A program made the translations under genes and the position numbers. Positions 15,665-46,505 of a DNA stretch of 50,126 nucleotides are shown here, piece after piece. Below the pieces are notes generated by a model. That model ran no database searches. It was not told the origin of the DNA and saw only the letters and a program-made list of their open reading frames with translations. This DNA is from a phage: sequence record PZ445405.1; one strand, 5' to 3'. Numbering within the stretch: position 1 is the stretch's first letter; each line of letters opens with the position of its first letter.

Positions 15665-15738
15665 ATAGCACGAATTGCTAAACACCAACGCGACGGATGG
15701 CGTATAGTTACTTCATCGAAACGAGAGGAGATAAATAA
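15665..15738 (+). promoter_or_regulatory. Canonical promoter cassette (box 15665-15682, TATAGT 15703-15708, leader CATCGAAACGAGAGGAG)
   Basis: Near-identical to the cassette at 537-611; TTGCTA to TATAGT spacing 22 bp. Confidence 0.6.
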
Positions 15739-17459: not shown

Positions 17460-17509
17460 TTTAGTGTAGAATGGCACAAATGATCAAAACAAACATGAGG
17501 CTTTGTGAT

Positions 17510-20500
17510 ATGGCTGAAGAGATTAAGATTTATGGTGCCAAGGGTGGTAGCCAGAAGCAGCATCAACCAGTAGAGCAGGAAGATAACCTGATTTCGTTAA
17601 ACAAGGTTAAGGTTCTTTTGGCGGTTGCTGACGGAGAGGTGGATCCAAACTTCTCAATGAAGGATTTATACCTTGCTGACGTTCCAGTACAAAATCAGAA
17701 TGGCACCTACAACTATGAAGGAGTTCGAGCTGAGTTCCGCTCTGGTACGCAGTATCAGGATTACATCGCTGGGCTTGACGGTGCTAACTCAGAGATTCAG
17801 GCTTCACGTGAAATCACGAACGACACCCCGTACATTATTGCGGTTAACAATACTCAGCTATCAGCAATTAGAGTTAAGCTATTTTGGCCTCGGCTGGTTA
17901 AGCAAGAAAGCAACGGAGACCTGAACGGAACTACTTGCGAGTACGCAATTGACCTTTCTGTTAATGGTGGCGCTTATCAGGAATACACTCGCGGAGTTGC
18001 AAACGGGAAGACAACTACGGGTTACGACCGCAGTATTCGTGTAAACCTTCCAGCTGAATTTGATAGCGCACTGGTTCGAATTCGCAAGATTACAGCAGAT
18101 TCAACAAGTAGCACGCTGGTTAATGGAATGCAGATTACAACCTATCAGGAAGTAATTGACGCTAAATTCCGCTACCCGCTTACTGCTCTGGTTTATGTTG
18201 AGTTCGGATCTGACCTGTTCCCTAACGGCATCCCGACAATCTCTATAAAGAAGCGCTGGAAGTTGATTCAAGTCCCGACAAACTACGACCCGGAGACCAG
18301 GACTTACAGCGGCACATGGAATGGCCTGTTCAAAATGGCGTGGTCAAACAACCCGGCCTGGGTTCTCTATGACTTAGTGACAAATCGCCGCTACGGCCTT
18401 GACCAGCGAGAGTTGGGTGTAGAGATTGATAAGTGGGGGCTATATGAAGCTGCGCAATTCTGTGACCAGATGGTGCCGGATGGTAAGGGTGGTATGGAGC
18501 CGCGCTACCTGTGCGATATGGTTGTGCAGAATAAAGTTGAGGCCTACACGCTAATTCGTGACATCTGCTCAATCTTCCGTGGACTGACTTTCTATGATGG
18601 CGAAAAGATTGGTATCGTGGTTGATAAGCCTCGAAATACATCTTACATCTTCACGAATGATAACGTTGTAAACGGATTATTCAGCCGAACTTTTGCCAGT
18701 GATAAGAGCCTTTACACTACGGCAAACGTTCAGTTCGATGATGTGGAAAACAACTATCAGCAAGATGTAGAGCCGGTATTCGAGTTGGAGGCTACTCGCA
18801 GATTTGGATTCAATCCAGTCGACCTTACGGCAATCGGATGTACGCGAAGAAGTGAAGCAAACAGGCGCGGCAGATGGCTCCTGAAAACCAACCTGAGAAG
18901 CGAAACTATCAGCTTCACTACCGGGTTGGAAGGCATGATTCCGATGATTGGCGAGGTGATTGCGGTTAATGATGCCGCATGGTCTAGCAACTATCAGCTG
19001 AACCTTTCCGGTCGTATTGAGTCAGTTCAGGGATTGCAGGTTTTTACACCGTTCAAAGTTGACGCTGCGCCGGGCGACAGAATTCTTCTAAACAAGCCTG
19101 ACGGAAGCCCAGAGGCAAGAACTATTGCCAGCGTTTCGGAAGATGGTAGAACAATCAACCTTAACACTGCTTTCAGCTTTGTGGCTCAACCTGATACTGT
19201 TTTTGCAATTGATAAGGACAATCTAGCGCTTCAGCAATATGTTGTGACAGGGATTCAAAAAGCAGACTCTGACGGTTCGGATTCTTTCCAGTATACGATT
19301 ACCGCAGTAGAGTATGACCCGAACAAGTACGACGAGATTGACTACGGCGTTAACATTGCTGACCGTCCAACTTCAATTGTTGAACCTGACAGATTGTCGC
19401 CGCCTGAGAATTTAACAGTATCAAGCTACAGCAAGATTGTTCAGGGCTTATCAGTTGAGACGATGGTTATCGGATGGGATAAGGCGCCATACGCTAAAAC
19501 TTACAACGTTCAATGGAGGAAAGAAAATGGCAACTGGATTAACGTACCCAGAACAGCAAGCACAGAGGTTGATATCGAGGGTATTTACGCAGGAATCTAC
19601 GACGTTAGGATTCGCAGCGTATCAGATACTGAAAACGTGTCCGCCTGGTCTGGCATTGTAACCAAAAGCCTCACCGGAAAGATTGGTAAGCCACCAAAGC
19701 TGCAGGTTATAACGGCGAGTGATGATGAGGTTTTCGGAATTCGAGTTAAATGGGGGTTTGCTGACGGATCTGGTGATACTGCTTACACTGAGCTTCAGCA
19801 AGTGGCTGATAATGGTGATGGTACATACAACCCAGACAGTGCTAGCCTGTTAACTTTGGTCCCATATCCTCAGTATGAATACTGGCACACGCCGATTCAA
19901 CCCGGCAATGTTATATGGTATCGCGCAAGGATTATAGATAGGATTGGTAATACATCTGATTGGACGGACTTCGTCAGAGGGATGAGTACTGATGACGCTC
20001 AGAAGATCGCTGAATATATCAAGGTTGATATCGAGCAGTCTGAAGGATTTAAATACCTACAGCAGAATGCAATTGATAAAAACCAAGACATTCAGAATCA
20101 AGCTGAGGCAATAATCGAGAACGCACTAGCAAATGACTCAGATGTAAGGCGCCAGTCTGTTAAGAATGGGAAATTTACAGCTTCAATAACCGAAAGTCTT
20201 CAGTTGATTGCTGACGAGCAGCAAGCCAGGGTAACTCAGATATCTCAGCTTGAGGCGGATTTTGACGGAAGGGTTAATTCTTTAAACACTGAACTAAGAG
20301 AGGTAATAACAACTGGTGATAGCGCTCTATCAAGATCAATTGATGATTTAAGGGTTGAGATTGACGAGAACATATCATCACAAATAACAAACATAAACAC
20401 GGCTTTAGTAACAGAAGCAGAAGCAAGAGCCACGGCTGACACAGCTTTGTCTGCAAGGCTTGGTCAGAACGAGGCGGCACTAAACCAGAAGCTGGATGCT

Positions 20501-20980
20501 TTCTCTAATGCCACATCAACTGGCGTACAGTACGGAATTAGTCTTGGCCTGAAATACAACGGGCAGACTTATTCATCCGGTATGAGCATGGAGCTCGTTG
20601 GCACTGGTGGCAATGTTCGCAGTCAATTCATTTTTGACGCAAACAGATTCGCAATCAGTAACGGAATTGGTTCTGGTTCCGGTCAGTGGCAACTCCCCTT
20701 TGTTGTTGAGAATGGAAACGTAATCATCCAAAGCGCAGTAATCGGTGATGGATCAATCAGTAACGCGAAGATTGGTAACTTCATTCAGTCCAATAACTAC
20801 GTGGCAGGAAGCAGAGGTTGGAGGATTGATAAGAGTGGTAATGCTGAGATCCGAGGAAAACTTTACGCCAACAGTGGTGAGTTCGCTTTTAACGGAACAA
20901 ACAATACGGTACAGATTAACGGGAACGGAATTACGGTAAACTTACCTGGAGGTGGTAGGGTTGTTGTAGGCACGTTTTAA
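17510..20980 (+). CDS. Central tail fibre / host-specificity protein (lambda gpJ-like)
   Basis: Extensive collinear similarity to lambda J (VPTNYDPETRTYSGTWNG.., GCTRRSEANRRGRWLLKT); start at ATG 17510 with GAGG SD. Confidence 0.9.
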   Translation: MAEEIKIYGAKGGSQKQHQPVEQEDNLISLNKVKVLLAVADGEVDPNFSMKDLYLADVPVQNQNGTYNYEGVRAEFRSGTQYQDYIAGLDGANSEIQASREITNDTPYIIAVNNTQLSAIRVKLFWPRLVKQESNGDLNGTTCEYAIDLSVNGGAYQEYTRGVANGKTTTGYDRSIRVNLPAEFDSALVRIRKITADSTSSTLVNGMQITTYQEVIDAKFRYPLTALVYVEFGSDLFPNGIPTISIKKRWKLIQVPTNYDPETRTYSGTWNGLFKMAWSNNPAWVLYDLVTNRRYGLDQRELGVEIDKWGLYEAAQFCDQMVPDGKGGMEPRYLCDMVVQNKVEAYTLIRDICSIFRGLTFYDGEKIGIVVDKPRNTSYIFTNDNVVNGLFSRTFASDKSLYTTANVQFDDVENNYQQDVEPVFELEATRRFGFNPVDLTAIGCTRRSEANRRGRWLLKTNLRSETISFTTGLEGMIPMIGEVIAVNDAAWSSNYQLNLSGRIESVQGLQVFTPFKVDAAPGDRILLNKPDGSPEARTIASVSEDGRTINLNTAFSFVAQPDTVFAIDKDNLALQQYVVTGIQKADSDGSDSFQYTITAVEYDPNKYDEIDYGVNIADRPTSIVEPDRLSPPENLTVSSYSKIVQGLSVETMVIGWDKAPYAKTYNVQWRKENGNWINVPRTASTEVDIEGIYAGIYDVRIRSVSDTENVSAWSGIVTKSLTGKIGKPPKLQVITASDDEVFGIRVKWGFADGSGDTAYTELQQVADNGDGTYNPDSASLLTLVPYPQYEYWHTPIQPGNVIWYRARIIDRIGNTSDWTDFVRGMSTDDAQKIAEYIKVDIEQSEGFKYLQQNAIDKNQDIQNQAEAIIENALANDSDVRRQSVKNGKFTASITESLQLIADEQQARVTQISQLEADFDGRVNSLNTELREVITTGDSALSRSIDDLRVEIDENISSQITNINTALVTEAEARATADTALSARLGQNEAALNQKLDAFSNATSTGVQYGISLGLKYNGQTYSSGMSMELVGTGGNVRSQFIFDANRFAISNGIGSGSGQWQLPFVVENGNVIIQSAVIGDGSISNAKIGNFIQSNNYVAGSRGWRIDKSGNAEIRGKLYANSGEFAFNGTNNTVQINGNGITVNLPGGGRVVVGTF

Positions 20981-21010
20981 AACAAAAGCCCCGAAAGGGG
21001 CTTTATCTTT
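20977..21010. terminator. Bidirectional terminator between convergent J (+) and the 311-aa gene (-)
   Basis: AGCCCC-gaaa-GGGGCT flanked by an A-run upstream and T-rich sequence downstream. Confidence 0.6.
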
Positions 21011-21944
21011 AATACATATCAGGAAGGTAAGGAAGAGGAATGCCAAGTGTAACGTCTGGCCTATTTCCAATTTCATATCTAACTATCCTTGTGCCCGTGC
21101 CGCTCCTTACATTACCACCAGACATTACCACACCTTTGTTTCTTAGCTCCTTGTATGCAGGTATTGCTCTTGTGTTAAACCCACACCTAAGTATTGGAAA
21201 GTATGAGTTTCCTATACTCTGGTTTGAGCTCGTCAAGGTCCTGAACCCAGAAACAACAAGAGGCCTTGTTAATGTTGAAAAAGTACACTGATTGTTAGAG
21301 TTGAATATGTTTATGCCAGGCCCTGGGGTTGGAGCAACCTGCTGAAATATTATTAGATCAAGAGTTACGCTACCAGGGGTATCTCCAGTATCTTCTGTAT
21401 TTATATTCGTGCAATATAGAGTTCTGTCACCATCAAACTCAACTGAGACACCTGAGTTATTCCACTTCCCAAAAGGTATTCCAGCTATTGGCATTGTATA
21501 GCTGTTTGTGAATGATACGGTTGCTGAAAATTTGCAAGTAAGAAGCCTATCCCTTGTTGTTATAGAGGCGAAATCAGTACTATCAGCAACGTATATACCT
21601 TGCCCAGTTGACGCTCTCAATACTTCCACTACAGTTCCAGAGAACTGCGTAATACGGTCATTATAAGCATTCTCCCCACCAATAGTTATCGTCCCCTGAG
21701 TATTGGTTGCTGAAAATCCATTTATATAATAAATCTCAACCCCCCTATCAAGTTCAAAGCTATAGGCACCATTTCTTGGTAGTAAGAATTTTGATGAGCC
21801 ATCGCTACCAGTTATTGGGAATGTCTTTGTAAATCCTCCGCTAGAAACGTTGAAGTTACCAGCAAAAGACAACCCCCTCATCCCTGAGGTTATCATCATT
21901 GGGTTTCTACCATCATTCAGATCTATATATATACCTTGGGCCAT
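21009..21944 (-). CDS. Hypothetical 311-aa Gly/Ser/Thr/Asn-rich protein; candidate receptor-binding or tail accessory protein
   Basis: ATG overlaps the TAA of the upstream lipoprotein gene (TAATG); SD AAGGAG; location just downstream of J. Confidence 0.5.
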   Translation of the reverse strand: MAQGIYIDLNDGRNPMMITSGMRGLSFAGNFNVSSGGFTKTFPITGSDGSSKFLLPRNGAYSFELDRGVEIYYINGFSATNTQGTITIGGENAYNDRITQFSGTVVEVLRASTGQGIYVADSTDFASITTRDRLLTCKFSATVSFTNSYTMPIAGIPFGKWNNSGVSVEFDGDRTLYCTNINTEDTGDTPGSVTLDLIIFQQVAPTPGPGINIFNSNNQCTFSTLTRPLVVSGFRTLTSSNQSIGNSYFPILRCGFNTRAIPAYKELRNKGVVMSGGNVRSGTGTRIVRYEIGNRPDVTLGIPLPYLPDMY

Positions 21945-22174
21945 TAATTCCACTCCTTAGAGCCATGATCACGAACAGATCCGCTAGAGCCTTTAATTCC
22001 ATCGTAACGAACATCAACCTCGCCAGCCGGAACAACTACACCACCCTTCCATTTAGCTACGCATACGCCGTTAGCTTGAGTTGCACACCAACCATCCGGG
22101 CGAGGACCCGATGAACAACCTACTGTCATGATTACTACTGCGGCGATGATTGCTGATTTGATTAAGTTAGTCAT
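21944..22174 (-). CDS. Small lipoprotein (76 aa); candidate superinfection-exclusion lipoprotein (Llp/Cor-like role)
   Basis: Signal peptide ending in the lipobox-compatible MTVGC; cassette-driven; translationally coupled to the 311-aa ORF. Confidence 0.5.
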
Positions 22175-22258
22175 TTTGTATTCCTTAGTAAGTTCGTTTC
22201 GTTTCGATGGAGTAATAGTATCGCATCCTTGCGATCAGTGTTTAGCAATTCGTGCTAT
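22175..22258 (-). promoter_or_regulatory. Canonical promoter cassette on the minus strand (box at 22241-22258)
   Basis: Reverse complement reads ATAGCACGAATTGCTAAA, 22 bp, TACTAT, CATCGAAACGAAACG; the box also encodes the C-terminus (NSTNC) and stop of the upstream gene. Confidence 0.55.
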
Positions 22259-22931
22259 TCGCCAAGAATACAGCTCTTGCAAATCCACGAGGTGTAAGGC
22301 TGCGAATTACCTTTGTCTTCTTGCTCTTGCCGCCAAGTTTCTTGTATTGGTCAGAGAAACCACCATCAACCTCCACAGGAATCGCCTCAGGCCATCTAAA
22401 CCCATTACCAGACCAAATACATGTCTTTTTAGGGTATGCATCTCTTGGCTTTATTAGGTCTCTAAAAAACGGGTGTAAATCATCTTCCGGCAAATATCCA
22501 CCGTACTCATATGGATGGAAAGTGTTATCAGGTTTTCGCCAAAGTGATGAAAGTACGCTGATTGGGTTTTCAATCATGTATGGCACCTCGTACTTTTCAG
22601 CCAGGTTGAAAGCAAACTTGCAAGTCTCTGCCGCCTCAATTTGAAAATTAGGATTGGCAAGACGCTTACGCTCGAAGTGTCTTGAGCCGCTCACCGCTAA
22701 ATCCGTACAAGGCGGGAATGCTAAAATGAAATCAGGCTTCACATCGAAATCGAAGTCAGCATCTATCCAGGTGTTAACGTAGGTAATATTCTCATGCTCA
22801 ACTTTTGCGTTTAAGTCACCGTAGCTCCCGTGGTCTGACTCATCAAAGTTGAAGCAGTAGCAAGTGTGACCAGCTTCAGCCCAATCTTTTACCGCCAGAC
22901 CAGAACCATCAAATAAAGACCAGATAACCAT
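22242..22931 (-). CDS. Short DNA C5-cytosine methyltransferase-like protein (229 aa)
   Basis: Motif I-like LFDGSG, catalytic motif IV-like FPPC, motif VI-like ENPIS; too short for a canonical C5-methyltransferase. Confidence 0.4.
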   Translation of the reverse strand: MVIWSLFDGSGLAVKDWAEAGHTCYCFNFDESDHGSYGDLNAKVEHENITYVNTWIDADFDFDVKPDFILAFPPCTDLAVSGSRHFERKRLANPNFQIEAAETCKFAFNLAEKYEVPYMIENPISVLSSLWRKPDNTFHPYEYGGYLPEDDLHPFFRDLIKPRDAYPKKTCIWSGNGFRWPEAIPVEVDGGFSDQYKKLGGKSKKTKVIRSLTPRGFARAVFLANSTNC

Positions 22932-23003
22932 ATTAAAACCCCTCTCGTTAAAGTGCGGCGATTATACCGCGCAAAATTTATTGTTCTTTGGCAATTCGTG
23001 CCA
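22932..23003 (-). promoter_or_regulatory. Promoter cassette variant on the minus strand (box TGGCAcgaatTGCCA, 22 bp, TATAAT, leader AACGAGAGGGG)
   Basis: Perfect palindrome variant of the box; -10 TATAAT (rc of 22961-22966); upstream stop codon abuts the box. Confidence 0.55.
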
Positions 23004-23005
23004 TA

Positions 23006-23212
23006 TCAGATTTTAAATTCTTCATAGTTGTTGTTGATAATCAGGCAGTGATAACGGATCAATTCAATGCGTCTCTCTCCGTGATTTAAAGCATTCTCGG
23101 CGCATCTTTCCTGATACTCAGCCCAAGCCTTATCTCGGTCTATTGTTGGCTCCGTGGCGATTCTGAGGCCCTTTGGTGTGGTGATTACTACCTGATAGAG
23201 TAAGTTGCTCAT
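23006..23212 (-). CDS. Hypothetical protein (68 aa)
   Basis: ORF in a minus-strand operon downstream of the Rha-like gene. Confidence 0.4.
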   Translation of the reverse strand: MSNLLYQVVITTPKGLRIATEPTIDRDKAWAEYQERCAENALNHGERRIELIRYHCLIINNNYEEFKI

Positions 23213-23223
23213 TTCATATCTCC

Positions 23224-23493
23224 TTAATGGATATTTTCGCAGCCAGGTAGGGACTTAACATTGTAATGTCGATAAGCGAATATCAAGTTAAGGGCTTGCT
23301 CGCCTGTGCACTTAAGAGCGCCAGAGATAATCAGTGAAGACTCAGCAATGTGATTCATTAACTCATTTCTGACAGGGTCGTCATCTGCCATTAACTCTGC
23401 GTGCTTAACAAAAAGAGCGTTGTTTACCAGGATGGTCACAACCTTTTCATTGAGTTCTTTCTTCGCTTTCGCAATCTCTTTCTCGTAGTTCAT
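23224..23493 (-). CDS. Hypothetical protein (89 aa)
   Basis: ORF in the minus-strand operon; nearly abuts the upstream gene. Confidence 0.4.
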   Translation of the reverse strand: MNYEKEIAKAKKELNEKVVTILVNNALFVKHAELMADDDPVRNELMNHIAESSLIISGALKCTGEQALNLIFAYRHYNVKSLPGCENIH

Positions 23494-23494
23494 C

Positions 23495-24136
23495 TTATAC
23501 CACCTTATTTTCGATTTGCATTACGTTATTAACTGCCAGCATAACATTTCGATTCTGCTGCTGCGTTGTAACTACAAAAGACTCCATCTTAATCCGATCT
23601 AAATCTTTTTCCGCACCCTCTCGGGTTAATTGCATTACCCGGTCATGGTTATATTTTTCCAATTCCGTCAACCCCACCTTATCTTCAAGCTTCCAGCAGT
23701 ACACCTGCATTTCACTATATATTTTAGAGTTTACAGCCATTTGGCCTTGCATGCTATGAATGTGGTTATCTTTCTCTTTAATGATTTTCTCGTAATGTGC
23801 CACGATGTTTAGATTTCCAACAGCTTCGATCTTTGACTCAAGTTCATGAAGCCTTCGGATTACTTTATGGCGAAGTGCGACGCTGTATCCGGTGATTAGC
23901 GTTTCGGTAAGTTCCTTGTTAAGCAAAATCTCTGATGTATAGCCACGAACGTCAGTAAGTACTTGATAATCATCATGACTCAAATCTGAGTCATCGTTAT
24001 AATGTAACAATTCATCGATCATTTCTTGAGCGTCCCTCACGACGTTGCCATGTCGCTTTCCGGTTAATTCGGCAACTTCCTTTGTGCTCATCATTGCTTT
24101 TGGTTGTTCTTTGTACACTTTAATATTCATTTTCAT
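23495..24136 (-). CDS. Rha-family phage regulatory protein (putative)
   Basis: N-terminal motif STKEVAELTGKRHGNVVRD typical of the Rha domain; start ambiguous (24136, 24130 or 24172). Confidence 0.55.
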   Translation of the reverse strand: MKMNIKVYKEQPKAMMSTKEVAELTGKRHGNVVRDAQEMIDELLHYNDDSDLSHDDYQVLTDVRGYTSEILLNKELTETLITGYSVALRHKVIRRLHELESKIEAVGNLNIVAHYEKIIKEKDNHIHSMQGQMAVNSKIYSEMQVYCWKLEDKVGLTELEKYNHDRVMQLTREGAEKDLDRIKMESFVVTTQQQNRNVMLAVNNVMQIENKVV

Positions 24137-24172
24137 CTCTCTTCTGTTTTTCATGACCCAAATCTGGATCAT

Positions 24173-24276
24173 GATTTGATGTTCGGCCTGAAATTCAGGT
24201 TGGATGACGACACCATTGCCGCCATGCGCCTAAATATAACTAAAGATACCCAGTTGTCTTTAGCAATTAGTGCTAT
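24173..24276 (-). promoter_or_regulatory. Promoter cassette on the minus strand (box at 24259-24276, centre CTAAT; -10 TATATT)
   Basis: Reverse complement ATAGCACTAATTGCTAAA followed 22 bp later by TATATT; long leader with a possible 18-codon upstream ORF. Confidence 0.45.
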
Positions 24277-25927: not shown

Positions 25928-26002
25928 ATAGCACGAATTGCTAAAGACAAAATTAACGAGTGGGGTATGATTGCCCCATCAACAACGAACGAGGTTAAAA
26001 TT
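25928..26002 (+). promoter_or_regulatory. Canonical promoter cassette (box 25928-25945, TATGAT 25966-25971, leader CATCAACAACGAACGAGG)
   Basis: Box overlaps the stop of the upstream gene; 22-bp spacing conserved. Confidence 0.55.
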
Positions 26003-27228: not shown

Positions 27229-29748
27229 TTACCCAGTTGCTCCAGTAACTATATTTTTCCATCCAGTCCCTGTCGCAAAAGCAATTAATCCAGTACCCGT
27301 ACCAAACGATGCATTATTGTTAGTGCATGATTGATTTCCGGTGCGCTGGAGATTTGCAGCATCTACAGTTAAACCAAATCCATAGGCACGATAGTTGAAG
27401 CCACTTTTTGCATTTGATGGGATGAGCGAGTTACCATAGTTTATTGCACCGTAGATATCAACAATCCCTGCTGCGGTCGTTTCAATTGGATTTCCCGAAG
27501 TGGAAATAAGCGTTACGTTACTTGCCGTTACCATTCCTCCAGAATAAAACAGGGCAAGTTTTCCACTGTTCGCACCTGTAACATTACTCAGTATCACTCT
27601 TGGTGATGAGGCGTCTGCATTGGCAGCGAATTGCCTGAACAGATGGCCGTTAGAATAAACCATATCAGAAATGTTTATATTTTTTAACGTTCCTCCACGA
27701 ATTTGGCAGAGTGTTGCCTCTGTTTTATGATCTACCGACCCTTTTATAGTTACGTTGTCAACAACACCTCTCGTAACCAGGCACAATGAACTGTACTGGT
27801 CACCACTTAACAAAGTATTTTTTGACTTGATATTAACGTTAAGGATTCTTGACTTATCATTTCCAGATCCTTCACCACATGCGAATCCAAACTTAGAATT
27901 TCTTGGCGCATCCATGTCTAAGTTATAGACTGTGACACCAACAGACCCCCTAACGTCAACAACAGGAGTTGATATATTAGTTAAGTTAGTGGATACGCCT
28001 TCCACTACCACTTGATCAGCAAACACCTCGCCCAGGCCACGGTCGTAAATTTCACACAGTGCATGGCCCGCTCCAGGAATAGCGGATATATCATCAAATA
28101 TTGCATATTTAACCGTTGTTTTTGTTAGGTTATGATCAGCCCAAATTCTTACCGGAGCATGTTGGCAGGTGCCATGTATTCCCCGTACAGATACATGCTT
28201 AAACTCAACACCATCGTTACCTGCAAGCTTTACAGCACACAGAGTTGTGTCATTAAATAACCCTTCAACATCGATAAATGTGAAATTTCCTCGAGTCCCT
28301 AAGTCATATGATGCGTAATCTCCACCGGTCATTGCGAATAAGTCGTCTCCGGTATGACCACGTAGATTCCTTACATACGCATGGTAGATGGGTGGTTGCA
28401 AGTGAAGACCATCAGAGTGATTGTCAAACTCAAGACCCTGAGCATCAAGGTAATCAATATTCGCTACAAGATAGGCATACTTGAACGCCCCACCAACTTT
28501 AAGTCCACCACCAAGTTTTAGCCTTTTAACACCAGCTATACAGATGGCATGGGTATTAAGCCCTCCTGGAGCAGTACCGGATTTGTTATAATTTATAATT
28601 CCACCACCACGAATTCCAAGATAATCAGATTTTTTAGTCAGGTCCGAAGGGTTTGATATGGTATCAAACCAATACTCACTAATAAATAAAGGCATGTTTG
28701 TGCCTTCTACGTTTCTAATCTCTGTTCCTGCGTGAATCAATACATCCATATTGTTTTTTAGCAGTAAAGAACCATTTACCAACACAACTCCTTTGCAGTC
28801 AAAAACAAATTGAGAAATGAAAGATTGTCCTCCTAGCGACGAAAATACCGAGTTAATCCTTGCAGTATTCTCTTCTGCCGTAGAAGATGGGGATACACCA
28901 TAATCAGACATAAAATAAGTTTGCCCAACGCGCACATCCAAAGGCATAGGAACCCCAGGGCCATTTGGATTTGTGTATGTGACTAGTGACGAACCAGATC
29001 CAGAAGCTAAGTTAGCTCTTAATGATGTATCACTAGCTCTAACCCATGCACCAGGACCAATACCACCAGATGATTCAGGAGTTGATCCAGCTGGAACAAC
29101 CTTAGGTAACGTTCCTGACCAAAGGAACTGTACGGCATAACCATCAATGAATTGAATTATCACTTGGTTTTTTGACTGAAGAGTTACTCCATCATCAAAG
29201 TTACCAACCAGGGCTCCGGATACTGATTCAGCGGCACTCTGAGCGACGATTGCAGAATTGCTTGCAGATGACGCGGAACTAGAAGCTGAATCCTTGTCTG
29301 CTGATACCTGAGATGCATCAGATGATACCTGAGAAGCAATAGTAACAATTTCTCCAAACTGTGTGTTAACTTGGTTTACATCAGTTGAGAATTTATCATG
29401 ATCAAAATCCTTGAAAACATCAACCGCCTCTGCAATCGCAGTTTCACGCGACTGATAGTGACGAAGTGTTTCCGCAACATCTTGAGCTAAACCCTGAACG
29501 GTAATTCCATCATGCGCAAGGATTGCGTAACCAGTACCAGCAGGAACGGTTTCAGAATTAGGGTTGTAAACATTAATCTGCGTATCGCTGATAATTTCTG
29601 AGATGGTGTAAATTTTTACTGGTTCAGTTTTGAAAACAATGGTAGCACCTACGCGAATCAGTGTAAGCGGTGCTTTCCATGTAGTTCCCACGCCGGTCAC
29701 CTCGCCATTTGCGGATAACGACGCCGTTCCTAAGTCATAAATTGCCAT
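27229..29748 (-). CDS. Side tail fibre / tailspike-like protein (839 aa)
   Basis: Large Gly/Ser/Asn/Thr-rich protein with Ser-rich linker (SSDASQVSADKDSASSSASSASNS); start at ATG 29748 with SD GGAG. Confidence 0.6.
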   Translation of the reverse strand: MAIYDLGTASLSANGEVTGVGTTWKAPLTLIRVGATIVFKTEPVKIYTISEIISDTQINVYNPNSETVPAGTGYAILAHDGITVQGLAQDVAETLRHYQSRETAIAEAVDVFKDFDHDKFSTDVNQVNTQFGEIVTIASQVSSDASQVSADKDSASSSASSASNSAIVAQSAAESVSGALVGNFDDGVTLQSKNQVIIQFIDGYAVQFLWSGTLPKVVPAGSTPESSGGIGPGAWVRASDTSLRANLASGSGSSLVTYTNPNGPGVPMPLDVRVGQTYFMSDYGVSPSSTAEENTARINSVFSSLGGQSFISQFVFDCKGVVLVNGSLLLKNNMDVLIHAGTEIRNVEGTNMPLFISEYWFDTISNPSDLTKKSDYLGIRGGGIINYNKSGTAPGGLNTHAICIAGVKRLKLGGGLKVGGAFKYAYLVANIDYLDAQGLEFDNHSDGLHLQPPIYHAYVRNLRGHTGDDLFAMTGGDYASYDLGTRGNFTFIDVEGLFNDTTLCAVKLAGNDGVEFKHVSVRGIHGTCQHAPVRIWADHNLTKTTVKYAIFDDISAIPGAGHALCEIYDRGLGEVFADQVVVEGVSTNLTNISTPVVDVRGSVGVTVYNLDMDAPRNSKFGFACGEGSGNDKSRILNVNIKSKNTLLSGDQYSSLCLVTRGVVDNVTIKGSVDHKTEATLCQIRGGTLKNINISDMVYSNGHLFRQFAANADASSPRVILSNVTGANSGKLALFYSGGMVTASNVTLISTSGNPIETTAAGIVDIYGAINYGNSLIPSNAKSGFNYRAYGFGLTVDAANLQRTGNQSCTNNNASFGTGTGLIAFATGTGWKNIVTGATG

Positions 29749-29771: not shown

Positions 29772-29789
29772 ATAGCACGAATTGCTAAA
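29772..29789 (+). promoter_or_regulatory. Orphan palindromic box ATAGCACGAATTGCTAAA without downstream -10 or leader
   Basis: Perfect box lying between two minus-strand genes, 24 nt from the tail-fibre start codon. Confidence 0.4.
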
Positions 29790-29842: not shown

Positions 29843-30759
29843 AGTAGTTCGCTTGCCTTATAGATTCTCTTTCTTATTCCTGACTTGAAAAAATTATCAT
29901 CATTTGGCATTACCACATCAATATTGCGATCGTCAGCAACGGCGAGTAAATCAAGATCGTGGCGAGTACAAGCGATGCGTAACTTGTATTTTCTAAGCGC
30001 GTAAGCAACCATTTCCATGTTGTAGATGGAGTAGCAAACAAGCACGCAGCGGTTGCCAGTAGCAATGTGAACACGATAGCCGTCAATGAGATTATCGACC
30101 AGATAAGCGTAATCATCATCCTTAAAGGAACCAATAACAGAAACAGATTGGCGAGTATAATCTTTTGCAGCATAACTAACACCTCCATATTCATTGATAA
30201 ACATTACATTACACATTTCTTCTGATATGCCGTCACTATAAGCCATAAAGCACGGCACTGCGTGTATTAGTTCGCCTGATTTTGTTCTGCCAACATCAAA
30301 GCCAAACTCGCTATAGATTCCCTCGTATGTACTGAGCGGAGTTGATTCTACTCTTTCAGTCCTTTCCATTATCTCTAAGCATCTTTCGTGGTCAATCTGA
30401 GCGCCCATTTTGTAGATCTGGGTTCTTGATGCTTGCTTGTTTGCTTTAACTATAACCTCAATTGGTGTTAAGTTCAGCCAGTCACCAAGCAAATTTACTG
30501 AATCGGCGAAGGACGATCCAGTGCACTTCATGACCCATCCTATACCGGAGTCACTCCCGCATTTCGAACAAACTGCCGCGCCATTTCCTTTTTCACTGCC
30601 TATTTCGTCGGTAAATCTGAATCTGTCAGTGCCAAAGCAGTATGGGCATGGTCCGTGCTTCTTACTTAGGTGTCTATCATTCCAACCAAGTTCCTTTGCA
30701 TAAAATGATTTCCACAATCCGGCCATCTTAGGTATAACTTCATTCTTATCGTAATTCAT
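29836..30759 (-). CDS. DNA primase-like protein with zinc-ribbon
   Basis: Cys motifs CPYCFG..CSKCGSD in the N-terminal region; ATGA coupling with the upstream HNH gene; replication gene context. Confidence 0.5.
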   Translation of the reverse strand: MNYDKNEVIPKMAGLWKSFYAKELGWNDRHLSKKHGPCPYCFGTDRFRFTDEIGSEKGNGAAVCSKCGSDSGIGWVMKCTGSSFADSVNLLGDWLNLTPIEVIVKANKQASRTQIYKMGAQIDHERCLEIMERTERVESTPLSTYEGIYSEFGFDVGRTKSGELIHAVPCFMAYSDGISEEMCNVMFINEYGGVSYAAKDYTRQSVSVIGSFKDDDYAYLVDNLIDGYRVHIATGNRCVLVCYSIYNMEMVAYALRKYKLRIACTRHDLDLLAVADDRNIDVVMPNDDNFFKSGIRKRIYKASELLN

Positions 30760-31235
30760 TTGCTTAACCCGTGATTTTCGTGAAAGTTGTATTTTCTCTC
30801 TGCTTCAATTCTTACTTTATACGCCTGCTCTGGAGTATCGAAGTTCCCAAGGTGTAACTGCTTACCGTCAACCTTGATGTGAGCCTTAAATTTTCCGTGA
30901 TTTAGCTTTGCCACTCCACAATAACCAGTTGTTGATAAAACGCTAAGCCTGCAATTTCTTGAGTTACCTTGATTTGTTGTTACTCTTAGGTTTTCTATTC
31001 TGTTATCTAATTTGTTATGGTTTATATGATCAATGTAGTCGCCATTTTGAAGTTCTCCATTAAACATCTCCCACACAACTCTATGTACGTAAGTCCTAAA
31101 GCCATTAACAGACACTTTGTAATAGCCAGATGTAGATAGTGAGTTGCACTCATCGCCAACCTTAACACGTCTTGCAGTGCTAATCTTCCAATGCAATTTG
31201 CCATCTACATAGTAAAAATAATCATGCCAGTTCAT
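30756..31235 (-). CDS. HNH homing endonuclease (HNH + AP2-like), copy 2
   Basis: Motifs DHINHNKLDNRIENLRVTT and paralogy to the other two copies. Confidence 0.8.
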   Translation of the reverse strand: MNWHDYFYYVDGKLHWKISTARRVKVGDECNSLSTSGYYKVSVNGFRTYVHRVVWEMFNGELQNGDYIDHINHNKLDNRIENLRVTTNQGNSRNCRLSVLSTTGYCGVAKLNHGKFKAHIKVDGKQLHLGNFDTPEQAYKVRIEAERKYNFHENHGLSK

Positions 31236-33856: not shown

Positions 33857-34272
33857 ACATAACAGATAAAGAAGATTACATTGAGTTTTACCCGGGCCCG
33901 GTTAAGTATTGCCCTAAAGAGGATGACGAGCAAATCTTTTGCTCTGATTGGGTTAAGTATCATTACCCTCAGATTGTTTACTGGCACACGGTTAATGAAT
34001 CGATGAAGACCATTGGACAGGCAAGAAAAGACCAGGCCAAAGGTTTGCTTAAGGGGGTTTCGGACTGCTTATTCCTGATACCTGAATCACTTCGTGGTAA
34101 ATACCCTTTTGGAGCCATAGAGCTAAAAAGGGCCGGGAAGACGCAGGCGAGTCCAGTCAGCGACGAACAGAAGTCCTTCCTTAAGAGCGTCAGAGAATCG
34201 GGCGGCTTCGGGGCTGTAGCTTACGGACGTGAGGGTTTTCTTGCGGCATTCAAAGAAATGATTTCAAAATAG
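33853..34272 (+). CDS. VRR-NUC domain nuclease (putative)
   Basis: Motif GVSDCLFLIPESLRGKYPFGAIELKR (D..E.K core); ATGA coupling to the helicase gene. Confidence 0.55.
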   Translation: MNITDKEDYIEFYPGPVKYCPKEDDEQIFCSDWVKYHYPQIVYWHTVNESMKTIGQARKDQAKGLLKGVSDCLFLIPESLRGKYPFGAIELKRAGKTQASPVSDEQKSFLKSVRESGGFGAVAYGREGFLAAFKEMISK

Positions 34273-34350
34273 CACGAATTGCTAAAGACGTTTCGGTGAG
34301 TTGGTGTATTATCTATTCATCGAAACGAAACGCACAAAGAGAGAAACAAA
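34269..34350 (+). promoter_or_regulatory. Canonical promoter cassette (box 34269-34286, TATTAT 34307-34312, leader CATCGAAACGAAACG)
   Basis: Box contains the TAG stop of the upstream gene; 22-bp spacing. Confidence 0.55.
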
Positions 34351-34641
34351 ATGGCTACTATCTATACTGGTAAATTCTACGAATCACGCAAAACTGGTTA
34401 TGAGTATGAATTAGTAATAACCCCAGAAGGTTATGTACTTGATGATGGTGAAGGGTACGCATTCGAAGTTAGCCCGACTTACAAAGATGATTTAGAAACT
34501 GTTAAAAACGCATTTGGCGAAAAATTTGATGTTATTGATGATGGTGATGGCTACGCATTCGAAGTTAGCCCAACCTACAAAGATGATTTAGAAACTGTTA
34601 AAAACGCATTTGGCGAAAAAATTGATGAGGTATCAGAGTAA
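34351..34641 (+). CDS. Hypothetical acidic protein with internal 32-aa tandem duplication
   Basis: Two 96-bp direct repeats (34441-34536 and 34537-34632) encoding DDGEGYAFEVSPTYKDDLETVKNAFGEK twice. Confidence 0.5.
   Translation: MATIYTGKFYESRKTGYEYELVITPEGYVLDDGEGYAFEVSPTYKDDLETVKNAFGEKFDVIDDGDGYAFEVSPTYKDDLETVKNAFGEKIDEVSE
34441..34632 (+). repeat. Tandem 96-bp in-frame duplication (2 units, about 93% identical)
   Basis: Direct comparison of the two units shows only about 7 substitutions. Confidence 0.8.
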
Positions 34642-34862
34642 TGGCAATTTTTACACTTGAAAAACAATGGGAAGTTTTCCAGTCGATGGTGGATCAGGAG
34701 TTGCATAAAGCTGGGTATAAACATGAAGGCTGGGATATGGCTTGGTGCCTGGATATGAGCTTTGAAGAAGACTACCTGAATACTGATATCGAAACGTGGC
34801 GCGACCGCATGGTTGCAGACATTGAAGAAATGAAGAAAGATTGCCCGGAGGATTTCTTATGA
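34641..34862 (+). CDS. Hypothetical protein (73 aa)
   Basis: TAATG overlap with the upstream gene. Confidence 0.4.
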   Translation: MAIFTLEKQWEVFQSMVDQELHKAGYKHEGWDMAWCLDMSFEEDYLNTDIETWRDRMVADIEEMKKDCPEDFL

Positions 34863-35050
34863 TTGGAATCTGCGTAAAAACAAATGGACGCTTTACACTG
34901 CTCGAGGATTACGAAATCAACTTTGATTCAGGCGGCGCAATAACAGTAAAAGGAGAAGATGAATTACATTGGTTCCTTAGTTATCAAGGTGATGGCTACT
35001 ACGGTTGCACGGATTGCTACGGAAAAGAAGTTAGCTTCTTAGTAGAATAG
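34859..35050 (+). CDS. Hypothetical protein (63 aa)
   Basis: ATGA overlap with the upstream gene; SD GGAG. Confidence 0.35.
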   Translation: MIGICVKTNGRFTLLEDYEINFDSGGAITVKGEDELHWFLSYQGDGYYGCTDCYGKEVSFLVE

Positions 35051-35120
35051 CACTTTTTGTTAAAACTCAAATCCAGGGATGGATTATATTAAGCACATAA
35101 ACAACGAAGAGGGTTAAGAG
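35047..35120 (+). promoter_or_regulatory. T-rich-centre cassette (ATAGCACTTTTTGTTAAAAC, 22 bp, TATATT 35085-35090)
   Basis: Box overlaps the TAG stop of the upstream gene; leader with SD AAGAGGG. Confidence 0.5.
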
Positions 35121-35246
35121 ATGAAAATTGTAGACAAAGAGATGTTCGAGATCGCACAAGCATACGCAAATGACGCAGTTAAAACTGGTTCGGAATACTG
35201 CTGGATGTGCGCTAAAGAATACCTGAAAATGGCTTACGGGTTATGA
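35121..35246 (+). CDS. Hypothetical small protein (41 aa, CWMC motif)
   Basis: First ORF after the cassette; ATGA-coupled to the next ORF. Confidence 0.3.
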   Translation: MKIVDKEMFEIAQAYANDAVKTGSEYCWMCAKEYLKMAYGL

Positions 35247-35491
35247 TAGTTGAAACCGGTCGCGCCGCAGTTTGGGCGCACTGTGGAGAGGCTGGTTTGC
35301 AAGATGACATTAAGCAGATATCCCGCTTCTTTGACATAAAAGATATCAGTGTCGTGTTCAATGGTAAATTCTCTTACATGGATGAGCGCCCAAGAAAATA
35401 CGTAAGAGTTAAGCCAGGTGTCAGGATTGATGTTAATGAGTTCCTTAAATCTGAGGGATTCAAGTTTAAGATAACGAAGCCTAAGGATTGA
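35243..35491 (+). CDS. Hypothetical protein (82 aa)
   Basis: ORF from the six-frame track, coupled to flanking genes. Confidence 0.4.
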   Translation: MIVETGRAAVWAHCGEAGLQDDIKQISRFFDIKDISVVFNGKFSYMDERPRKYVRVKPGVRIDVNEFLKSEGFKFKITKPKD

Positions 35492-35493
35492 GT

Positions 35494-35745
35494 ATGTTGG
35501 GTTTAGATTTCCAGCCAGAGCATTACGATTTAGTGCACGGGAAAAGTGGTGCAAAGTTTAGGTCGATACCTATCTCTGACTGGTTCCCTCCTGATTATGT
35601 GGATGTGAACGCAAAAACTAAAGGCGGGAAGTGGGTGCAGATTTACTACTCCCCAGCATGCGGAAACCTTTGCATGACTGACCTTGACAAAAAATTAGCA
35701 ATTAGTGCGGAAGTGATCGACTACTGGTTGAAAGAAGTTGAATGA
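35494..35745 (+). CDS. Hypothetical protein (83 aa)
   Basis: ATG with SD AAGGA; ORF from the six-frame track. Confidence 0.4.
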   Translation: MLGLDFQPEHYDLVHGKSGAKFRSIPISDWFPPDYVDVNAKTKGGKWVQIYYSPACGNLCMTDLDKKLAISAEVIDYWLKEVE

Positions 35746-35828
35746 CTAGCCTAATACTAGTAGCATCGTTACCACTGTTTAGCTTTACTATCTTATACTT
35801 TATCGTAATGAATTAAGGAACTTATATA

Positions 35829-36959
35829 ATGGCAACTGCAAAAATCACCAACGAACAATTGCGCGAAGAGCTAGCAAATGGCATGACCAACAAGGCAATC
35901 GCAGAGAAGTACGGAATGAACATTCGCAACGTTGAATTGCGTCGCAGTAAATTAGCGAAGAGTGGAGAATTGCACGGAAACCCGGGAATCAAGAAGTTAG
36001 TTCCTGACGGCTATTTGGTCAAAGGGACGTCAACGATGATTGACGCTGAGGGCAACGAAAAGATTCGCTGGGTTAAGACCTCTGTAGATAATGAGCGCCT
36101 TGAGGTTTTGATGGAACAGGCTCGAGAGGCATTCTGCTCTGAGTTGCCAAAGGCAGATTCGGTCACCCACTCAGGCAATGAGGTCAACTCTGAATTAATG
36201 ACTCTTTACCCTATTTTCGATATCCATATCGGCATGATGGCTCATCGACATGAGTCTGGTGAAAATTATGACACCAATACCGCAGAGAAATTAATGGAAT
36301 CATATTTCGATCATGCAATTTCTGTATCGCCATCCTCAGAGAAAGCTGTGATTTTAGTTGGCGGCGACTTCCTTCACTCTGACGGATTGGAAGCTGTAAC
36401 CCCAGCAAGCGGACACTGCCTTGATCAGGATAGTAGGTATGCTAAGTTAGTTTATGTTGCGATTCGCTCAATTCGTGGTGCCGTAGAGAAGATGCTTAAG
36501 AAGCATAAGAATGTCGAGATTCAGATTATAGAGGGAAATCATGACCAGAGTGGTATGATTTGGCTCCGTGCGGCAATGGCTGCATTTTATGAAAACGAGA
36601 GTCGCGTCTTTGTTGATACCAGTCCGGCAATCATGCACAAAACTAGATTTGGCTCAACATTACTTGGTTACACACACGGCCACACAATGAAGAAGGCAGA
36701 AGGCAGGCTTGCAGCTATGGCAACTGATTACAGGAAAGATTTTGGTGAGTGTGAATTTGTTTATTGCCATTCCGGGCATTTTCACCACGCAACTGTTACA
36801 GAGTGCACACTTGGGATTGATGAGGTTCACCCAGCCCTGGCTAGCAAGGATGCATATGCCGCTCGCGGAGGGTGGCGATCATATCGCCAAGCGGCTGCAA
36901 TTGTTTACCACAAGAATTTTGGCGAGGTTGGTCGACACATTTATCGCCCCGGTATGTAA
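35829..36959 (+). CDS. Calcineurin-like metallophosphoesterase with N-terminal HTH-like domain
   Basis: Phosphoesterase motifs DIHIG, GGDFLH, GNHD, GHTH, GHFH in canonical order. Confidence 0.6.
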   Translation: MATAKITNEQLREELANGMTNKAIAEKYGMNIRNVELRRSKLAKSGELHGNPGIKKLVPDGYLVKGTSTMIDAEGNEKIRWVKTSVDNERLEVLMEQAREAFCSELPKADSVTHSGNEVNSELMTLYPIFDIHIGMMAHRHESGENYDTNTAEKLMESYFDHAISVSPSSEKAVILVGGDFLHSDGLEAVTPASGHCLDQDSRYAKLVYVAIRSIRGAVEKMLKKHKNVEIQIIEGNHDQSGMIWLRAAMAAFYENESRVFVDTSPAIMHKTRFGSTLLGYTHGHTMKKAEGRLAAMATDYRKDFGECEFVYCHSGHFHHATVTECTLGIDEVHPALASKDAYAARGGWRSYRQAAAIVYHKNFGEVGRHIYRPGM

Positions 36960-37031: not shown

Positions 37032-37517
37032 ATGAATTGGCATGATATTTTTGAATACAACGATGGCATTCTTTATCATAAAGTTAAGTTATGTATAAGA
37101 AATGATGTTAACGTTGGTGATATTGCTGGGGGGGGCGTTAGGCAAAACGGCTATCACTACGTGAATTACAAAAATAAGTTTTACAAAAGGTCAAGGGTTG
37201 TATGGGAGATGTTTAATGGAGATATACCTGAGGGATTTGTCATTGATCACGTCAACCATGACGCGACAGATGACAGGATAGAAAACCTAGAGTGCAAGGA
37301 GCGCAGGGATAACATGGTTAATGTAAAGCTAAGGATTGATAGCTCCTCTGGTGTAACTGGTGTAGCAAGAAAGAGCGGTAATAAGTGGAGGGCATACATA
37401 ACAATCATGGGTAAGCAGAAGTCCAAGAGCTTTAACACGTTTGAGGATGCTTGCGCACAGAGGATTGAATGGTCGGTAACTCATGATTTTCACCCAAATC
37501 ACGGTGGAAAATACTAA
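37032..37517 (+). CDS. HNH homing endonuclease (HNH + AP2-like), copy 3
   Basis: Motif VIDHVNHDATDDRIENLE and paralogy to copies 1 and 2. Confidence 0.8.
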   Translation: MNWHDIFEYNDGILYHKVKLCIRNDVNVGDIAGGGVRQNGYHYVNYKNKFYKRSRVVWEMFNGDIPEGFVIDHVNHDATDDRIENLECKERRDNMVNVKLRIDSSSGVTGVARKSGNKWRAYITIMGKQKSKSFNTFEDACAQRIEWSVTHDFHPNHGGKY

Positions 37518-43769: not shown

Positions 43770-44293
43770 TGTTTGACTTTAACGAGGATAAACTGACAGA
43801 AGAGCAGGTAATTGAGATAGCCAAGCAAGATGGGCTGCCGCCGCTGCGAATTGCAATCAATGCTAACGGGTATCGACAGTCAACGGCGTTTTGGGGCTCG
43901 ATTGATACCTCAGGGGTGTATAGTGGTGATGAGCTTGGTGTAATGATTAAAATCATCAGGAAAATGGGAGTTAACGGCAAAGGAGTTGTTGGCGTCAGGT
44001 CTCTATATGAAGGTGCTCGCAAGCTGAAACCATTTGCGGGGCGCGATGGGATGATGCTACTGATTAAGGATAAGCTAATTCCAGAGCTCGACAAGATGAA
44101 TATCACGTGCCTCATTGGCGATAAGATTTACGTCAACCCTGCCTTGACGGATTTAAGCTGGCATCCTAACTTCAAAACTTACGAAGGTGAGCACGCTAGT
44201 AGACTACCATACCACTTGCGGTACACTGAGGAAGAGGTGGAGAAGGCTATTGAGTTCTATCGGAAAGCTAAATCACTAATTATCGCCAAATAG
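43766..44293 (+). CDS. Truncated paralog of the primase-helicase (N- and C-terminal domains only, no ATPase core)
   Basis: N-terminus MFDFNEDKL..LPPLRIAINANGYRQS and segment NGKGVVGVRSLYEGARKLKPF..CLIGDKIYVNP match the two ends of the 527-aa protein. Confidence 0.55.
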   Translation: MMFDFNEDKLTEEQVIEIAKQDGLPPLRIAINANGYRQSTAFWGSIDTSGVYSGDELGVMIKIIRKMGVNGKGVVGVRSLYEGARKLKPFAGRDGMMLLIKDKLIPELDKMNITCLIGDKIYVNPALTDLSWHPNFKTYEGEHASRLPYHLRYTEEEVEKAIEFYRKAKSLIIAK

Positions 44294-44363
44294 CACGAAT
44301 TGCTAAACAATGGATCGGGTAGTCAGCTATGATTACTTCATCGACAACAAAGAGGAAATGAAG
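44290..44363 (+). promoter_or_regulatory. Canonical promoter cassette (box 44290-44307, TATGAT 44328-44333, leader CATCGACAACAAAGAGG)
   Basis: Box contains the TAG stop of the upstream gene; 22-bp spacing. Confidence 0.55.
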
Positions 44364-44570
44364 ATGAAAAACGTTATTATTGAAGATATTCACTTTGACC
44401 AAGCTGAGGTAGGAATCGCAAAAAGCGTTCGCGGAAACGTTGTATATCTGAACTTCGATCCAGATAACTACGGGGACGGCCAGACACTGATGCAGTACAG
44501 TCCTGAGCAAGCACGCAAACTGGCGGCGGCGTTAATCATGGCAGCGGACGAGGCGGAGAAGCAGCGATAG
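44364..44570 (+). CDS. Hypothetical protein (68 aa)
   Basis: ATG 44364 at good distance from SD AAGAGG; start ambiguous with 44358. Confidence 0.4.
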   Translation: MKNVIIEDIHFDQAEVGIAKSVRGNVVYLNFDPDNYGDGQTLMQYSPEQARKLAAALIMAADEAEKQR

Positions 44571-44640
44571 CACGAATTGTTAAAAAGGGATTCATCCTGA
44601 CTGGTATAATCCCCACATCAACAACGAGACACTACTTATC
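44567..44640 (+). promoter_or_regulatory. Promoter cassette (box ATAGCACGAATTGTTAAA, 22 bp, extended -10 TGGTATAAT 44602-44610)
   Basis: Leader CATCAACAACGAGAC but no substantial ORF until 44826. Confidence 0.5.
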
Positions 44641-45440: not shown

Positions 45441-45513
45441 ATAGCACGAATTGCTAAACCCGCTCCGGCGGGTTTTGTTATAGTTAGTTCACACCAAACG
45501 AGAGGTAAGAGAA
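45441..45513 (+). promoter_or_regulatory. Canonical cassette with terminator hairpin in the spacer (TATAGT 45479-45484)
   Basis: Box 45441-45458, hairpin ACCCGC-tccg-GCGGGT plus T-run inside the 22-bp spacer, leader CACCAAACGAGAGG. Confidence 0.55.
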
Positions 45514-46293: not shown

Positions 46294-46433
46294 GCTTCAC
46301 TGAATATGTTATAGCATGTGAACGACTGGTCTTTGATATGAAAACTTTCCACTGGTTCATAATTAAAGACTTAATAAAGCCTTACAAGCAGGGCGTTACC
46401 CCAGAGGCGTTTGTTAAGTCATTCTACAAATAG
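46290..46433 (+). CDS. Hypothetical small protein (47 aa)
   Basis: Stop TAG lies inside the next cassette box. Confidence 0.3.
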   Translation: MSFTEYVIACERLVFDMKTFHWFIIKDLIKPYKQGVTPEAFVKSFYK

Positions 46434-46505
46434 CACGAATTGCTAAACGAAGTCGCCACGGATGGCATATAATTACCCTATCAATACAAAGAGAGAGATT
46501 GAGAA
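46430..46505 (+). promoter_or_regulatory. Canonical promoter cassette (box 46430-46447, TATAAT 46468-46473)
   Basis: Hairpin GCCA-cgga-TGGC in the 22-bp spacer, as in the cassette at 537. Confidence 0.55.

Follow-up and report, generated by a model that had tools for sequence, protein, structure and literature searches.

Drexlerviridae abundantly encode C5-cytosine methyltransferases (PMC8594841), and functional information is available for a compact, Dcm-like type of these enzymes. The genome of phage K42 is 95.4% identical to that of KarlJaspers, and its dcm gene also measures 711 bp. All four K42 mutants that escaped retron Ec86 were found to carry lesions in, or just upstream of, dcm, and expression of K42 Dcm was toxic solely in Ec86-carrying cells. 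LC-MS (liquid chromatography coupled to mass spectrometry) against a 5-methylcytosine (5mC) standard revealed high 5mC levels in the multicopy single-stranded DNA (msDNA) with K42 Dcm, but not with its C82A/E128A/K175A/K176A mutant or the empty vector. Alteration of the CCTGG sequence in the msDNA stem-loop abolished defence, and 34 of the 35 Ec86-sensitive phages encode such a Dcm (bioRxiv 10.1101/2023.08.16.553469). The present work deals with a homologous gene, here also termed dcm, of an Rtp-like Drexlerviridae (Braunvirinae) coliphage (sequence record PZ445405.1; the whole stretch of 50,126 nucleotides is referred to as the window). Its product very probably is an active, S-adenosylmethionine (AdoMet)-dependent DNA C5-cytosine methyltransferase of the compact Dcm-like PHROG 757 family, with the mechanism, mode of expression, and role proposed below.

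That this family has a published activity and acts as a trigger of retron Ec86 is already known: residue-dependent 5mC formation in DNA and Ec86 triggering have been demonstrated by others for homologs. Another homolog is gp52 of Pantoea phage AAS23, for which HHpred identified the Shigella flexneri cytosine methyltransferase 3ME5 with 99.7% probability (PMC8004638).

Family membership, predicted fold, and catalytic residues

The protein matched the PHROG 757 profile, annotated as "DNA methyltransferase", with an E-value of 4.9e-85, residues 1-227 aligning with profile positions 15-220 of 247. Homologs were identified by tblastn in 1577 phage records, the hosts including Escherichia, Klebsiella, Salmonella, Shigella, Vibrio, Flavobacterium, Campylobacter, and others. 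The best match, bas02_0026 of JeanPiccard (Bas02), is 93% identical and annotated as "Dcm-like C5 cytosine methyltransferase"; the Dcm-like protein of KarlJaspers (Bas06; 711-bp gene, 236 aa) is 60% identical over its full length, and AAS23 gp52 is 57% identical. In protein libraries, 4682 homologs were found at 90% clustering and 1293 representatives at 50% clustering. The family is frequent among T1-like phages and further phages of enterobacteria. An earlier note on this DNA, made from the sequence alone, had described a 229-aa open reading frame (ORF) at 22242-22931 that contains LFDGSG, FPPC, and IENPIS and resembles C5-cytosine methyltransferases. All of this was confirmed, and the strand, which had not been named, is the minus strand; the methyltransferase-like identity is borne out by the predicted fold, the conserved catalytic residues, and the match to PHROG 757.

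All conservation figures given here derive from an alignment of 64 diverse family members. Because all of them are between 208 and 260 aa long (median 236), the small size is a stable family trait and no truncation. To our knowledge, the PHROG 757 family is among the smallest active C5-cytosine methyltransferases. A scan for fused domains in longer members of 313-453 aa returned only one HNH_2 and one weak match; a family member of 348 aa (P0244) carries a C-terminal HNH_2 nuclease domain. The compact methyltransferase fold is also contained in the 1397-aa protein A0A6J5SE15 of the BFVD, which stems from an uncultured phage and is annotated as "Helicase/UvrB, N-terminal" (Foldseek E 7.6e-13).

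The three motifs are no chance occurrences, and the catalytic Cys and Glu are invariant within the family (for positions of all features, see Table 1). C75, G82, E121, P123, P140, Y166, W173, and P181 are invariant, and conservation reaches 90% or more at F72, P73, T76, K89, N122, R132, D164, K168, T170, R210, S211, P214, G216, and A220. The protein has the family length and the conserved blocks FPPCTDLAVSG, IENP, LWRKPD, YxKxTCxW, and IRSxTPRGFAxAV. Its FPPC motif, with C75 present in 64 of 64 sequences, F72 in 91%, and P73 in 94%, aligned with PPCQ of M.HaeIII, FPCQ of E. coli Dcm, and the PC motif of DNMT2. The ENP of motif VI (N122 97%) aligned with ENV of E. coli Dcm. Motif I of the protein conforms to FxGxG, and its counterpart in M.HaeIII is LISLFSGAGG; the family consensus SLFDxTG (L6 94%, D8 86%, G11 83%) is divergent in that the first Gly is not conserved. 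Residues C82, E128, K175, and K176 of the K42 and KarlJaspers enzymes align with C75, E121, K168, and K169 of the window protein, so that all four are conserved. K175 and K176 were assigned as substrate-binding residues by the K42 authors from a superposition with DNMT3A (bioRxiv 10.1101/2023.08.16.553469).

An AlphaFold2 model, based on the 64-sequence alignment, had a mean predicted local distance difference test (pLDDT) value of 95.6 and a predicted template modelling (pTM) score of 0.92. The predicted fold is that of a C5-cytosine methyltransferase catalytic domain. Its best structural match was DNMT3, a short-motif enzyme, and further matches included DNMT1, DNMT5, and DNMT2. These data bear on two other explanations. 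According to the first, the fold has been repurposed, either for the transfer of another group, such as carboxymethyl from carboxy-S-adenosylmethionine (Cx-SAM), or for action on RNA or tRNA, as in DNMT2. However, DNMT3B, DNMT3A, and M.HhaI scored at least as high as the carboxymethyl and DNMT2 classes in the structure comparison, and the LC-MS rise of 5mC in msDNA was caused by the 60%-identical K42 Dcm and absent with its catalytic mutant; we consider a repurposed fold very improbable. The second, to which we attribute a marginally smaller chance still, is a degenerate, catalytically dead methyltransferase remnant that has lost its target-recognition domain. The shortage of about 100 aa with respect to canonical enzymes and the sub-cut-off Pfam score reported below speak in its favour, but length and all catalytic residues have been kept over more than 1000 diverged clusters, the predicted model is compact and confident, and activity is known from a homolog of equal length. 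Both explanations were rejected. The suggestion in the earlier note of something unusual or repurposed found no support, as the protein belongs to a large annotated phage family with a 60%-identical member that forms 5mC by means of its catalytic residues.

The spacing between motifs I and IV and between motifs IV and VI is close to that of M.HhaI. M.HhaI and M.HaeIII are canonical bacterial C5-cytosine methyltransferases of 327-330 aa; M.HhaI comprises 327 aa, has its motif IV Cys and motif VI Glu at C81 and E119, and continues for 208 residues after the latter. In the phage protein only 108 residues follow the motif VI Glu, and the whole deficit is therefore located in the part that harbours motifs VII to X and the target-recognition domain (TRD). 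The previously noted shortness of about 100 residues was confirmed, and all missing residues lie after motif VI. QxRxR (motif VIII) and GNAV (motifs IX/X) are absent from the protein, and YPKKTCIW and TPRGFARAV are found at the corresponding positions. In YPKKTCIW, Y166 and W173 are invariant and K168 and T170 are 98% conserved; the model shows a strand at residues 170-175 of this region. The C-terminal block (R210 95%, S211 91%, P214 92%, G216 97%, F217 88%, A220 94%) corresponds to helices 204-211 and 215-226 in the model.

The K42 authors' superposition and our own considerations suggest that YPKKTCIW and TPRGFARAV would match the RxR and GRSW elements of DNMT3. The IRSLTPRGFARAVF block appears to resemble motif X of DNMT3, GRSWSVPV. 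The eukaryotic de novo CpG methyltransferases DNMT3A and DNMT3B share only 12-15% identity with the window protein; their domain of about 280 aa forms oligomers with DNMT3L and is accompanied by regulatory domains, whereas residues 139-165 form a conserved segment specific to the phage protein. The CCWGG enzymes E. coli Dcm and M.EcoRII are 472-477 aa and thus twice as long, and possess an N-terminal extension and a large TRD; in the phage, no vsr gene adjoins the methyltransferase gene.

Several results weigh against the explanation favoured here, of which those derived from sequence searches are given first. Outside PHROG 757, the hidden Markov model searches that had been proposed as a check of the earlier note gave little: PF00145 scored 15.9 bits against a gathering threshold of 22, the match being confined to residues 3-90, and the NCBIfam search of the protein returned no match. 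PDB sequence searches with phmmer and with the family profile provided nothing significant, the weak in-register matches being M.HaeIII (E 0.49) and DNMT2 (E 0.85). An hhalign comparison of the family profile with the single E. coli Dcm sequence gave an E-value of 0.13 over 62 columns that comprise motifs IV-VI only; with this value and with 229 against 472 aa, the protein does not group with Dcm/EcoRII-type sequences. Only 5 of the 64 family members reach E<=0.01 with PF00145, and the sub-threshold score of the window protein reflects the limited reach of the Pfam model and does not speak against the fold.

Among characterized enzymes, K42/KarlJaspers Dcm (bas06_0055, 236 aa; the Ec86/Eco1 trigger) is alike in size, PHROG family, catalytic and substrate-binding residues, and origin from a Drexlerviridae coliphage. 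Relative to it, three residues at the N-terminus and an insertion of 6 residues ahead of motif IV are missing from the window protein. KarlJaspers belongs to the Tempevirinae, whereas the window phage is a member of the Braunvirinae, and its dcm is located in an early leftward cluster near 40 kb, whereas the window gene lies beside the J gene and a lipoprotein gene.

DNA recognition, target sequence, and proposed mechanism

The part of the protein that follows motif VI consists of the 139-165 segment, YPKKTCIW, and the C-terminal block, and the sole variable stretch among them is formed by residues 176-203. With an entropy of 2.6-2.7 bits and insertions in homologs, these roughly 28 residues are, besides residues 31-66, the least conserved and most indel-prone segment of the protein. 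Their variability and their position between motif VIII and motifs IX/X suggest that they may form a minimal target-recognition region, which agrees with the earlier note in that a normal TRD is apparently absent. In the 139-165 segment, P140 is invariant and Y146 (86%), G145 (81%), and D164 (92%) are well conserved; in the predicted model it is mainly coil with one helix, at high pLDDT, and it may contact DNA.

In the proposed mechanism, AdoMet would be held by the N-terminal Rossmann half, through LFDGSG and an acidic residue after strand 2. Cys75 of FPPC would attack C6 of the flipped-out cytosine, and Glu121 of ENP would protonate and hold the flipped base. The DNA would be read by a very small region, residues ~176-203, probably aided by the conserved residues 139-173. 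The gene would be expressed from its own module, composed of a repeat and TATAAT, within the leftward accessory operon that is situated downstream of J, the tail-tip gene. By analogy with the homologs, the protein itself would be active and methylate the DNA of both phage and host, Dcm-type CCWGG sites being the most probable target. The gain to be expected would be an anti-restriction effect, namely, protection from 5mC-sensitive restriction, for instance by EcoRII-type enzymes, and the expected cost an exposure to retron Ec86/Eco1, the methylated msDNA stem-loop of which would trigger abortive infection. The window phage is predicted to have 5mC in its DNA and to be sensitive to hosts with retron Ec86/Eco1, of which E. 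coli BL21 is an example.

The remaining points on the opposing side concern target and role. In the BASEL study of Drexlerviridae, methyltransferase genes showed no simple link to restriction resistance (PMC8594841). The CCWGG target of K42 Dcm was assumed after E. coli Dcm and not mapped, and in strain MG1655 there was little 5mC in msDNA and Ec86 remained silent until the phage enzyme was expressed (bioRxiv 10.1101/2023.08.16.553469). MG1655 carries its own dcm gene, and the low msDNA 5mC level in this dcm+ host therefore indicates that phage and host enzymes may not be equivalent. The density of CCWGG is 1.52 sites/kb in the window (observed/Markov 0.73), 1.62/kb (0.78) in Rtp, which lacks the gene, and 2.50/kb (1.03) in KarlJaspers, which has it. 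The window does not differ from Rtp, and over- or under-representation of CCWGG in these three genomes is uninformative on specificity.

Another explanation, which we regard as possible but unlikely, is that the protein is an active C5 DNA methyltransferase with a target unlike that of the host Dcm, either a shorter or degenerate motif or a preference for DNA in hairpin or single-stranded form, for instance msDNA; its true role would then be a broader protection, or one other than EcoRII evasion. This would fit the TRD-like variable segment of only about 28 aa, the best structural match with a short-motif enzyme, and a protein of half the size of E. coli Dcm that has no detectable sequence relation to it beyond motifs IV-VI. 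It would also fit the MG1655 data, as 5mC at the msDNA CCTGG was low there in spite of the host's own Dcm, and Ec86 did not respond until the phage enzyme was expressed. The msDNA site mutants AATGG, ACTGG, and CATGG define no motif because cytosines were removed. On the other side, restriction digests showed AAS23 DNA to behave like DNA methylated by Dcm, an indirect line of evidence for which the host's own Dcm status is not given (PMC8004638). Throughout the family, the segments on either side of the variable region are highly conserved, a point in favour of one common specificity, and the contrast with the host enzyme in MG1655 could be due to dosage, that is, simply to expression level, or to a true difference in substrate preference. 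The wider proposal that the compact PHROG 757 enzymes as a whole are not true Dcm equivalents, but recognize a relaxed or shorter motif or can use DNA in hairpin or single-stranded form, appears slightly less probable again; such properties would explain why the phage enzyme, and not the host Dcm, methylates Ec86 msDNA and fires the retron. The favoured explanation remains a Dcm-type CCWGG target. The specificity of the compact enzymes bears on enzymology as well as on the question of how retrons tell phage from host methylation.

The upstream module and its 21-nt repeat

In phage TLS, a 21-nt direct repeat, aaATAGCACnnnTTGnTAAAA, occurs 21 times, some 76 nt upstream of start codons, and the authors of the TLS genome paper considered that it might serve as a stoperator, an enhancer site, or a UP-like element (PMC11447400). 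The repeat upstream of dcm in the window is this TLS repeat and has hence already been described. The genomes of Rtp and KarlJaspers, like the window, contain 18-19 copies each. The copy that precedes dcm begins where the 68-aa ORF upstream of it ends, at the stop codon of this ORF, and the start codon of dcm is the ATG at 22931. A second copy encodes the last five residues of Dcm and its stop (AAT AGC ACG AAT TGC TAA, that is, NSTNC and stop).

The 11-mer GCACGAATTGC has 19 matches in the window at <=1 mismatch, against 1.4 expected. About a dozen copies were found in register with the same series of elements, namely, aaATAGCACGAATTGCTAAAc, 22 nt (in the copies counted by hand), TATAGT, TATAAT, or TATGAT, a conserved leader with a GAGG-type ribosome-binding site at its end, and ATG; the orientation of the module is always that of the downstream gene. 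The notion that dcm has a cassette of its own with a consensus TATAAT was thus upheld as far as the hexamer, at 22966-22961, and the repeated upstream module are concerned. As a conventional promoter it failed: the sigma-70 scan called none upstream of dcm because there is no TTGACA-like -35 hexamer at 16-18 nt from TATAAT, and a spacing of 22 nt is too long for the TTGCTA of the repeat to be a classical -35 element. A terminator-like hairpin at 22953-22972 (plus strand) is within chance, with 2 found and 2.2 expected.

Table 1. Positions of the methyltransferase gene, its motifs, the upstream module, and neighbouring genes in the window
Feature	Position	Strand	Remarks
Compact Dcm-like DNA C5-cytosine methyltransferase gene	22242..22931	minus	229 aa, PHROG 757
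Motif I, LFDGSG, residues 6-11	22899..22916	minus	AdoMet-binding loop after strand 1
Motif IV, FPPC, residues 72-75	22707..22718	minus	Catalytic Cys75
Motif VI, IENPIS (ENV-like), residues 120-125	22557..22574	minus	Glu121
Family-specific conserved segment, residues 139-165, HPYEYGGYLPEDDLHPFFRDLIKPRDA	22437..22517	minus	Between strands 6 and 7
Motif VIII-like strand, YPKKTCIW, residues 166-173	22413..22436	minus	K168/K169
Short variable segment, residues 176-203	22323..22406	minus	Candidate minimal target-recognition region
C-terminal conserved block IRSLTPRGFARAVF, residues 209-222	22266..22307	minus	Motif IX/X-like
Shine-Dalgarno-like GAGAGGGG	22939-22946		Between TATAAT and dcm ATG
TATAAT hexamer	22961..22966	minus	22 nt after TTGCCA of the repeat; 29 nt to dcm ATG
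Drexlerviridae 21-nt direct repeat, slightly degenerate copy atATGGCACGAATTGCCAAAG	22986..23006	minus	~55-75 nt upstream of dcm ATG
Second 21-nt repeat copy aaATAGCACGAATTGCTAAAC	22240..22260	minus	Precedes Rtp45-like lipoprotein gene (22174..21944)
11-mer copies (examples)	540-550, 15668-15678, 25931-25941, 29775-29785, 34272-34282, 44293-44303, 44570-44580, 45444-45454, 46433-46443	plus	
11-mer copies (examples)	22245-22255, 22991-23001, 24263-24273	minus	
Operon gene 1, Ant/Roi-like DNA-binding protein	23495..24172		225 aa
Operon genes 2-3, small ORFs	23224..23493; 23006..23212		89 and 68 aa; no PHROG match
Operon gene after methyltransferase, Rtp45-like lipoprotein	21944..22174		
Last operon gene, Rtp44-like membrane protein	21009..21953		

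Genome context

The leftward accessory operon that contains dcm converges on a lambda-J-like tail tip gene (17471..20980). The surrounding 4-kb region is 90% identical to Rtp over about half of its length and about 82% identical to BEK3 and JeanPiccard. No dcm homolog was found anywhere in the Rtp genome by tblastn and annotation, whereas BEK3 and JeanPiccard have the gene at the same location as the window; the gene is therefore an accessory cassette within the Rtp-like phage group. JeanPiccard bas02_0026 also encodes 229 aa and has the same neighbours, namely, a J-like tail tip protein, a 314-aa membrane protein, and a 76-aa lipoprotein. It keeps the upstream GCACGAAT.GC box, with TATAGT at the position of TATAAT in the window, but differs in the upstream accessory genes, which in the window are the 68-aa, 89-aa, and Ant/Roi-like 225-aa ORFs.

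A region of variable cassettes extends from 22175 to 24172, bounded by the Rtp45-like lipoprotein gene on one side and the divergent operon of the recE side on the other. In Rtp it is empty (27917-28260, 342 bp intergenic), BEK3 has dcm and a Roi-like gene, and JeanPiccard dcm only, while that of the window comprises dcm, the two small ORFs without a PHROG match, and the Ant/Roi-like gene.

In KarlJaspers, the helicase and VRR-NUC genes have a Dam-like gene downstream of them; at this place the window (34272-35829) has only small ORFs of 69-96 aa. A Dam-like N6-adenine methyltransferase was found neither there nor in ten other mid-sized ORFs, the rest of the window not having been searched exhaustively; as far as this search extends, the Dcm-like enzyme may be the sole methyltransferase of the window phage. 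One of the ORFs in this region (34351..34641, plus strand, 96 aa) contains a 96-bp tandem duplication at 34439-34627 (2.0 copies, 94% identity), as a result of which a peptide of about 32 residues per copy, containing GYAFEVSPTYKDDLETVKNAFGEK, occurs twice.

The window also harbours two paralogous, free-standing HNH endonuclease genes, at 30756-31235 (minus strand) and 37032-37517 (plus strand), which match PHROG 99 with E-values of 9e-58 and 5e-50, respectively. Both are inserted between core genes, whereas the annotated HNH genes of Rtp (rtp20 and rtp40) are found in the terminase and tail regions.
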